Below are positions 1 to 3,000 of a DNA stretch of 64,000 nt, in pieces (within the stretch, counting starts at the first letter, position 1; the number at the start of each line of letters is the position of its first letter). Made by a program: the position numbers. Origin of the DNA: Escherichia coli (GTDB taxonomy: Bacteria > Pseudomonadota > Gammaproteobacteria > Enterobacterales > Enterobacteriaceae); NCBI RefSeq assembly GCF_003790525.1, contig NZ_CP033635.1; one strand, written 5' to 3'.

Positions 1-3000
1 CTAAAGCTGATTAGCACGGTGATATTTGATACTCTGGCAGACAGCAGAAATAACGGATTTAACCTAATGATGAATGACGGTAAGCAACAATCTACCTTTT
101 TGTTTCACGATTACGAAACCTTTGGAACGCACCCCGCGTTAGATCGCCCTGCACAGTTCGCAGCCATTCGCACTGATAACGAATTCAATGTCATCGGCGA
201 ACCCGAAGTCTTTTACTGCAAGCCCGCGGATGACTATTTACCCCAGCCTGGAGCAGTATTAATTACCGGTATTACCCCGCAGGAAGCACGGGCGAAAGGA
301 GAAAACGAAGCCGCGTTTGCCGCCCGTATTCACTCGCTTTTTACCGTACCGAAGACCTGTATTCTGGGCTACAACAATGTGCGTTTCGACGATGAAGTCA
401 CACGCAACGTTTTTTATCGTAATTTCTACGATCCTTACGCCTGGAGCTGGCAGCATGATAACTCGCGCTGGGATTTACTGGATGTTATGCGTGCCTGTTA
501 TGCCCTGCGCCCGGAAGGAATAAACTGGCCTGAAAATGATGACGGTCTACCGAGCTTTCGCCTTGAGCATTTAACCAAAGCGAATGGTATTGAACATAGC
601 AACGCCCACGATGCGATGGCTGATGTGTACGCCACTATTGCGATGGCGAAACTGGTAAAAACGCGTCAGCCACGCCTGTTTGATTATCTCTTTACCCATC
701 GTAATAAACACAAACTGATGGCGTTGATTGATGTTCCGCAGATGAAACCCCTGGTTCACGTTTCCGGAATGTTTGGGGCATGGCGTGGCAATACCAGCTG
801 GGTGGCACCGCTGGCGTGGCATCCTGAAAATCGCAATGCCGTAATTATGGTGGATTTGGCAGGAGACATTTCACCATTACTGGAGCTGGATAGCGACACA
901 TTGCGCGAGCGTTTATATACCGCAAAAGCCGATCTTGGCGATAACGCCGCCGTTCCGGTTAAGCTGGTGCATATCAATAAATGTCCGGTACTGGCCCAGG
1001 CGAATACGCTACGCCCGGAAGACGCTGAGCGTTTAGGGATTGCTCGTCAACACTGCCTGGATAACCTGAAAGTGTTGCGCGAAAACCCGCAAGTACGCGA
1101 CAAAGTTGTGGCAATTTTTGCAGAAGCTGAACCGTTTACACCATCAGATAATGTAGATGCACAGCTTTATAATGGCTTTTTTAGCGACGCCGATCGTGCA
1201 GCAATGAAAATCGTGCTGGAGACTGAACCGCGTAATTTACCGGCTCTGGATATCACCTTTGTTGATAAGCGTATCGAGAAACTCCTGTTCAACTACCGCG
1301 CCCGCAACTTCCCCGGCACGTTAGATGACAACGAGCAGCAACGCTGGCTTGAGCACCGCCGCCAGGTCTTCACACCCGAGTTTTTACAAGGCTATGCAGA
1401 AGAGATTCAGATGCTGGCGCAGCTGTATGCCGACGATAAAGAAAAAGTGGCGCTGTTAAAAGCGCTTTGGCAGTACGCGGAAGAGATTGTCTAATGTGAA
1501 GCCTCCGCCGCTGGTACGGCGGAGGACAATTTTGAGTCAGGCTTTTTGAACGGTGATGCTCCACGCTGCATCGCCAATCTGCTGATAATCGGTGATGGCA
1601 TGTCCTTCTTCTGCCGCCCACTGTGGGATTGCTTCAGTTGCCTGGGTGCAATCAAACTCAATTACCAACTCATCGCCGCTGGCCATTTCTGCCAGTGCTG
1701 CTTTTGCTTCTATGAGTGGAAACGGACAGACCTGCGTCACCACATCCAGCTTTTTAATCGCCATCTTTACACCTTACTTAATTTGCCGCAGCAGTTGCCA
1801 GTCGCGCCTTACGCTGCGGTCGAACATACACAAGCCAGGACGCAGTCCAGACTCCGAGAATCATAAATACAAGGCCAATCCAGCCCTGCCAGGTCATCAT
1901 TGCAGTCATGACCAGTCCATTACCGATAGAGCAACCACCTGCAATGCTGGCACCGAAGCCCATCAGTACACCACCTAACCCGCTACGTAATGTTGTTTGT
2001 GCATCAGCAGCGCGAACGCGGAACTCACGGCTCGCTTTGGCGGCAATAAATGACCCCACGAAGCTCCCTAACACCAGGAAAACGCCCCAGTTAATGTATT
2101 TCACGTCACCCGCGACCAGAAATTGCAGAATATTGGCCGTTGGGGAAGTGATGCCTAACCCAAACATACGTCCGGTTGCTTCACTCAGGGGCCAGGCTAA
2201 AAGCGCAATCAAACCGATGAGTACAGCTGTGACAAAGGGATGCCAGCGTTTTTCAAACAGAATATGAGCGATCCCGGTTCGGCGCGGCGGTAAGGTCGCG
2301 ACTTTGAGTTTTGGCTTCTTCAACTCTTTCATCACCACCCAGAGCGTTATCACCAGCAAAACGGCAACCAACGGCCACACAGACAAATTAAAAGTATCAG
2401 CAATAGAGTTATGTTCAGTAGTGTAGTGCTGCAAGGTTTGATTTAAACCACTGGCGTGTGGAGAACGCATCACCGCACTCATCACCATATAAGTGAAAAG
2501 CGCGATCCAACTGCCGATCAATCCCTCACCCGCGCGATACCAGGTCCCGGTGGCACATCCACCCGCCAGAACAATTCCCAGCCCGAAAAGATACCCACCT
2601 ATAACAGTACCAAGCCACGGGAACGCCCCGGCTTCGTAAGTCAGTAGGCCCGCCTGAATTAACGCAAAAACCCCCACGCTTTGTACCGAAATTGCAATCA
2701 GCAAGGCGTAAAACATGCGATTATTTTTCGCGACATACATATCGCGAAAACCACCTGTCAGGCAAAAACGCCCACGCTGCATGACAAATCCCAGCAGAGC
2801 ACCACAAATTAGCCCGCTTAATATCATTGAAAACATAAATTAATTAACCAGATGAATGTTAATAAGGAAATTATTCATGACTGGTGGAATGCAGACCAAT
2901 AACCAAATTCTCTAAATTAGAACAAATGGTTATTAATGAGGATTTCGATAAAAAAGAATAAAAAAACCGGAGCCAAATATTCATTCGACTCCGGTTGATT

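Follow-up and report, generated by a model that had tools for sequence, protein, structure and literature searches.

The window, by which we mean the whole 64,000-nucleotide stretch of Escherichia coli DNA analyzed here, carries near its left end two adjacent genes, tsuA (yeeE) and tsuB (yeeD). The pair and the non-coding elements that surround it are the following:

2836..1778, minus strand: tsuA (yeeE), an ATG-initiated open reading frame (ORF) of 352 aa
1765..1777, minus strand: 13-bp intergenic gap, which holds the yeeD ribosome-binding site
1764..1537, minus strand: tsuB (yeeD), an ATG-initiated ORF of 75 aa
2837..2964, minus strand: AT-rich non-coding stretch of 128 nt upstream of yeeE, flanked by the plaP terminator and the yeeE ATG; presumed promoter/regulatory region
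2996..2965, minus strand: terminator-like hairpin after plaP, an inverted repeat with a 14-pair stem and then a T run, TTTTTATTCT
1502..1525, no strand assigned: GC-rich hairpin between the convergent sbcB and yeeD genes, CCTCCGCCG-ctggta-CGGCGGAGG

The first-pass annotation of this DNA had placed here a gene for a YeeE/YedE-family membrane protein, followed after 13 bp by a gene for a TusA-like protein with a CPxP motif, and had read the two as a coupled transporter and sulfur carrier. The coordinates proved exact, and the separation corresponds to the gap at 1765-1777. No strand had been given; both genes lie on the minus strand, so that yeeD comes after yeeE when the DNA is read from 2836 to 1537. 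The gene order around the pair (sbcB, tsuB, tsuA, plaP, yoeI, yeeY, yeeZ, hisL, hisG) is the standard one for E. coli. At the DNA level, several complete E. coli chromosomes match window positions 1400-3000 with 100% identity, and RefSeq annotates sbcB, tsuB and tsuA on them. Four ORFs of 106, 128, 119 and 63 aa run over the pair on the plus strand and gave no Pfam match above the gathering score; they were rejected as genes, their single sub-threshold match being Ada_Zn_binding, with 18.3 bits vs. 23. No RNA family was found within 1400-3100 when Rfam was scanned at gathering thresholds.

The profile searches for PF04143 and PF01206, which had been proposed as a check of the two family assignments, found both domains far above threshold. 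YeeE matched PF04143 (Sulf_transp) with E 6.7e-118; its residues 21-331 span the profile in full, from position 1 to 310 of 310. It also scored 704.4 bits against NF041049, the NCBIfam model of the thiosulfate utilization transporter TsuA/YeeE, whose curated cut-off is 645. Residues 4-339 could be aligned to S. thermophila YeeE (StYeeE, PDB 6LEO) with an E value of 1.8e-42. The window protein has cysteines at positions 11, 25, 94 and 302, and hence contains all three published essential cysteines, C25, C94 and C302, whose published S. thermophila equivalents are C22, C91 and C293. The alignment to 6LEO further equated the StYeeE residues that contact YeeD (R28, R98, E101 and E261) with R31, R101, E104 and E271 of the window protein.

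The small partner was equally well defined. YeeD matched PF01206 (TusA) over profile positions 1-70 of 70 (E 3.2e-19) and the NCBIfam TsuB/YeeD model NF041048 with 163.2 bits, above its curated cut-off of 147.5. Given the full Pfam profile coverage and the E values of both proteins, chance matches can be excluded. The N-terminus of YeeD reads MAIKKLDVVTQVCPFPL, with CPFP as the form of the CPxP motif at residues 13-16. The protein has C13 and C39, the cysteine pair of the enterobacterial type, and it matches the YeeD portion of the fusion structures 8J4C and 8K1R. With the TsuA and TsuB models both passed, and with RefSeq naming tsuA and tsuB on identical DNA, the reading of the pair as a transporter coupled to a sulfur carrier was upheld.

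The closest known system is E. coli K-12 TsuA/TsuB (YeeE b2013 and YeeD b2012). It occupies the same place (sbcB - yeeD - yeeE - plaP - yeeY - yeeZ - his), with the same protein lengths (352 and 75 aa), the same 13-bp spacing and identical essential residues. Compared with K-12 DH5alpha, the window proteins showed 98% identity for YeeE (345/352) and 96% for YeeD (72/75). The seven YeeE substitutions, written from window to DH5alpha, are V35I, A36V, L83I, T139S, D146E, V245M and S258I, and the three YeeD substitutions are A2V, A28V and A42T; none of them falls at a known essential residue. The DNA of the window allele is identical to that of SMS-3-5, FDAARGOS_497 and like strains, not to that of K-12. 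The window allele would be expected to behave like the K-12 allele.

We have then considered how the two genes would be expressed. On the coding strand, the gap at 1765-1777 reads GTAAGGTGTAAAG and is followed by the ATG of yeeD. It contains a ribosome-binding site, AAGGTG, at 1775..1770, 5 nt ahead of that ATG, and no terminator-like site was found in it. Upstream, the hairpin at 2996..2965 is the predicted end of plaP and upstream boundary of the yeeED unit. A terminator at this position means that the pair needs its own promoter in 2837-2964. A simple sigma-70 consensus scan of 1400-3100 returned no promoter-like site, as might be expected of an activator-dependent promoter. When 2830-3020 was aligned to K-12 DH5alpha, five positions differed, three of them within 2837-2964. 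No Shine-Dalgarno sequence was evident ahead of the yeeE ATG in 2837-2856 (minus strand; TTAATTAATTT, then ATG), and therefore the transporter may have an intrinsically weak or unconventional translation start. The sequence that precedes the yeeE ATG is the same in K-12.

At the downstream end, the minus strand of 1490-1545 folds with -21.8 kcal/mol (z = -4.2), and none of 200 shuffled sequences folded as well. The 1502..1525 hairpin in this segment is followed by ACAATTTTG on the plus strand. It is probably a shared terminator of sbcB and yeeD; for yeeED this role is presumed, because the minus strand has no T run after the hairpin.

The first-pass annotation had also taken the two genes to be co-transcribed. 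This is most likely correct: the 13-bp gap carries a ribosome-binding site and no terminator, the unit is flanked by hairpins, and published data point to co-regulation. In arrays, yeeE and yeeD were up-regulated together (PMC2865769), and yeeED has been listed as an operon (PMC4145685). In one differential-expression table, the change in yeeE had the same sign as those in cysU, cysW and tcyP (PMC9068703). We would accordingly place a shared promoter within 2837-2964, from which both genes would be induced along with the cysteine regulon under sulfur shortage.

The function of this operon in E. coli has been described in two studies. A growth test in cysPUWA-deleted E. coli, which had been suggested for the pair, is already published for both genes. 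Cells without cysPUWA grow on thiosulfate, an extra deletion of yeeE abolishes this growth and plasmid-borne yeeE restores it (Tanaka 2020, PMC7449682); these growth data concern the K-12 allele. The YeeE cysteines C25, C94 and C302 are essential, as the alanine mutants fail to complement the cysPUWA yeeE double deletion (PMC7449682). The YeeE-dependent growth requires yeeD as well, and both C13 and C39 of YeeD are needed in vivo (PMC11073785).

The structural and chemical evidence came from S. thermophila. The 2.5 Å structure of its YeeE revealed an hourglass shape, whose thin centre is crossed by a row of the three conserved cysteines (PMC7449682). In liposomes, purified StYeeE carried thiosulfate and not sulfate (Ikei 2024, PMC11073785). 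The single cysteine of StYeeD formed thiosulfonate, perthiosulfonate and persulfide adducts, with release of H2S, and in the 2.6 Å complex (8K1R) it lies beside the innermost cysteine of YeeE, in the role of a “fourth cysteine” (PMC11073785). Structures of the S. thermophila YeeE and YeeE-YeeD fusion comprise 6LEO, 6LEP, 8J4C and 8K1R.

Based on these studies, TsuA would be an hourglass-shaped inner-membrane protein through whose thin centre thiosulfate would pass via C302, C94 and then C25, held by transient hydrogen bonding. TsuB would dock on the cytoplasmic face of TsuA, and its C13, in the CPxP motif, would act as the “fourth cysteine” that takes over thiosulfate as it emerges, forming a covalent adduct. 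The modified TsuB would then dissociate from TsuA, and decomposition of the adduct would supply cysteine synthesis with sulfur at the sulfide and sulfite levels. Such a scheme would resemble group translocation.

The two bodies of evidence differ in their reach. For the E. coli proteins, published genetics shows that both genes and five cysteines are required. Transport selectivity, complex structure and adduct chemistry are known from the S. thermophila proteins only, which are ~30% identical to those of E. coli and whose YeeD has one cysteine instead of two (C13 and C39). The window protein has in common with StYeeE the three transport cysteines, the residues in contact with YeeD and the conserved arginine at the outer site for thiosulfate, and the CPxP cysteine of YeeD is likewise shared. 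Two StYeeE residues that touch thiosulfate, K67 and E241, correspond in E. coli to G70 and G251. For the allele in the window, every functional step is what we infer from these homologs.

The pair was then compared across other genera. We derived a degenerate DNA pattern from the motif around C94 (GGCATGTWYRAGEG) and scanned it over one genome per species, which yielded at least 120 loci from other genera. The matches listed came from Enterobacteriaceae, Pasteurellaceae, Helicobacter, Staphylococcus, Streptococcus, Bacillus, Paenibacillus and others. The yeeD neighborhood was tested by tblastn with the window proteins, only in loci that offered enough sequence. Among the matches listed, yeeD immediately followed yeeE in the same orientation in all 94 testable loci, at a distance of ≤250 nt in 93 of these and of 263 nt in one. 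In the YeeE proteins among the matches listed, C25 was conserved in 117/117, R31 in 116/117, R223 in 114/114, E271 in 110/110 and C302 in 103/103. In the corresponding YeeD proteins, C13 was present in 97/98, the PFP that follows it in 98/98 and C39 in 97/97. The invariance of C94, R101 and E104 carries no weight, because the exact motif around C94 defined the set.

Taken together, the data led us to assign a probability of about 97% to the reading that the region is the tsuA-tsuB (yeeE-yeeD) operon of E. coli, already characterized and intact here, which serves thiosulfate assimilation as a second route beside the CysPUWA ABC transporter. None of the observations contradicts this reading. For the pair in the window, the analysis establishes which genes these are, that they are intact, and that key residues, adjacency and synteny are in place. 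The system is already known, and the tsuA-tsuB annotation suffices for it. Its general importance has also been published, as a second, cysteine-relay route of thiosulfate assimilation that bears on sulfur nutrition and on industrial cysteine production.

Three other readings were weighed against the thiosulfate operon. The one that survives best, and that we still find very improbable, supposes a different or broader sulfur substrate (zero-valent sulfur, polysulfide, or signalling amounts as for the SoxT/PmpAB relatives), with growth on thiosulfate as a side activity. These relatives are membrane proteins homologous to YeeE, in which the conserved cysteines are likewise found; PmpB and PmpA match one half of YeeE each (PMC11582611). 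However, their genes lie together with those for sulfur oxidation or with regulator genes, and their roles are in dissimilatory oxidation or signalling, whereas TsuA is a separate branch, which in the published tree stands well apart from SoxT1 and SoxT2 (PMC11582611). No sox or sulfur-oxidation genes lie beside the pair in the window, where the neighbors are sbcB and plaP. The selectivity of StYeeE for thiosulfate over sulfate in liposomes, and the reaction of YeeD with thiosulfate (PMC11073785), also speak against this substrate reading.

A further reading would make YeeD a redundant copy of TusA, engaged in tRNA thiolation or in sulfur transfer to the molybdenum cofactor, with its gene adjoining the transporter gene by chance. 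The general sulfur-relay protein TusA (YhhP) does belong to the same fold family (PF01206) and has the same CPxP cysteine motif, but its partners are soluble proteins, unlike that of TsuB. In addition, TsuB is reported to be unable to replace TusA (PMC11582611), and TusA is reported not to decompose thiosulfate (PMC11073785). The best NCBIfam match of the window protein was the YeeD-specific model, with no TusA model among the matches, and a YeeE-YeeD complex has been crystallized (8J4C and 8K1R). We thus consider the redundant-copy reading extremely unlikely, because of the YeeD-specific best match, the published non-interchangeability and the adjacency of the two genes, kept across phyla in the 94 testable loci among the matches listed.

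Finally, a selenium-metabolism module of the YedE/YedF type, which pairs a membrane protein with a small CPxP protein from the same two Pfam families in a similar two-gene layout and differs in substrate chemistry, is excluded for practical purposes, because the curated cut-offs were missed by far for YeeE (the YedE/FdhT models NF033796, 114.8 vs. 350 bits, and TIGR04112, 49.8 vs. 200) and for YeeD (the YedF models NF008242, 42.8 vs. 79, and TIGR03527, 28.7 vs. 110), while the TsuA and TsuB models were passed, the weak secondary YedE matches spanned only part of YeeE, and E. coli genetics tie both genes to thiosulfate (PMC7449682 and PMC11073785).

Beyond what the existing annotation of the tsuA-tsuB operon conveys, the analysis adds one point, the absence of the pair from many E. 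coli at the population level. In a sensitive blastn mode, 4,208 of the 5,426 complete E. coli genomes showed any similarity to 1537-2836, which leaves ~22% without the pair, whereas the flanking sbcB-plaP sequence was matched in 5,424 of the 5,426. The pair is thus outside the E. coli core genome. A clean empty site, consisting of the sbcB stop, ~73 bp and the plaP stop, was found in 783 genomes, among them Nissle 1917 and MS20677. Other yeeED-minus genomes, including O25b:H4-ST131, carry an IS200C copy at the empty-site position. We compared window 1495-3014 with the loci L003 (1995-2067) and L004 (1995-2779); the segment absent from the yeeED-minus genomes is the whole 1.45-kb yeeED stretch between sbcB and plaP.

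The order sbcB-yeeD-yeeE-plaP was kept, among the matches listed, in 15 loci from Citrobacter, Kluyvera, Kosakonia, Siccibacter, Pseudocitrobacter, Superficieibacter, Enterobacter and Pseudenterobacter. With this arrangement retained in other enterobacterial genera, the absence in E. coli is most simply explained by a secondary deletion and, from the genome comparison, looks like a secondary loss. Around the yeeED segment we found only short direct or inverted repeats at chance level, none of which explains the deletion, and the empty-site spacer aligned only loosely with the plaP terminator region. In the literature collection searched, where yeeE together with ST131 gave only unrelated papers, no paper discusses the absence of yeeED in E. 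coli. It is conceivable, and we propose it only tentatively as the less probable case, that a single loss of yeeED marks a major extraintestinal or commensal E. coli lineage, which would depend on CysPUWA alone for thiosulfate. If this were true, such strains could differ measurably in their metabolism where thiosulfate is abundant, for instance in the inflamed gut.

The same genome searches returned a few unusual cases. In E. coli HH45 (locus L002, 6001-6853), an internal deletion leaves fragments of both genes, namely a truncated TusA-family ORF (YeeD residues 14-75) and a 5' yeeE fragment annotated as a pseudogene. Six E. coli genomes matched the pair at only 60-80% identity. A few genomes had two copies, and one copy was located on a plasmid.

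Several features of the window around the operon were also recorded. The enterobacterial sRNA STnc240 gave an Rfam match at 4520-4594 on the minus strand (68.2 bits, gathering score 55), in the gap that separates yeeY from yoeI/plaP. The left end of the window, from sbcB to plaP (1-4400), is 100% identical to SMS-3-5, and the his-distal part (14000-64000) is 100% identical to TUM9803. This second part holds an O21-type O-antigen cluster, colanic acid genes, and wza to dgcE. The yefM-yoeB toxin-antitoxin pair, which sits between yeeZ and hisL in K-12 DH5alpha and TUM9803, is absent at window 6440-7022 and likewise in SMS-3-5, a further small presence/absence difference near the operon. Besides carrying yefM-yoeB, TUM9803 has a differing tsuA protein accession. 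Judged from such comparisons, the window looks mosaic relative to sequenced strains. The His leader was matched by Rfam at 6892-7015 on the plus strand, as expected.
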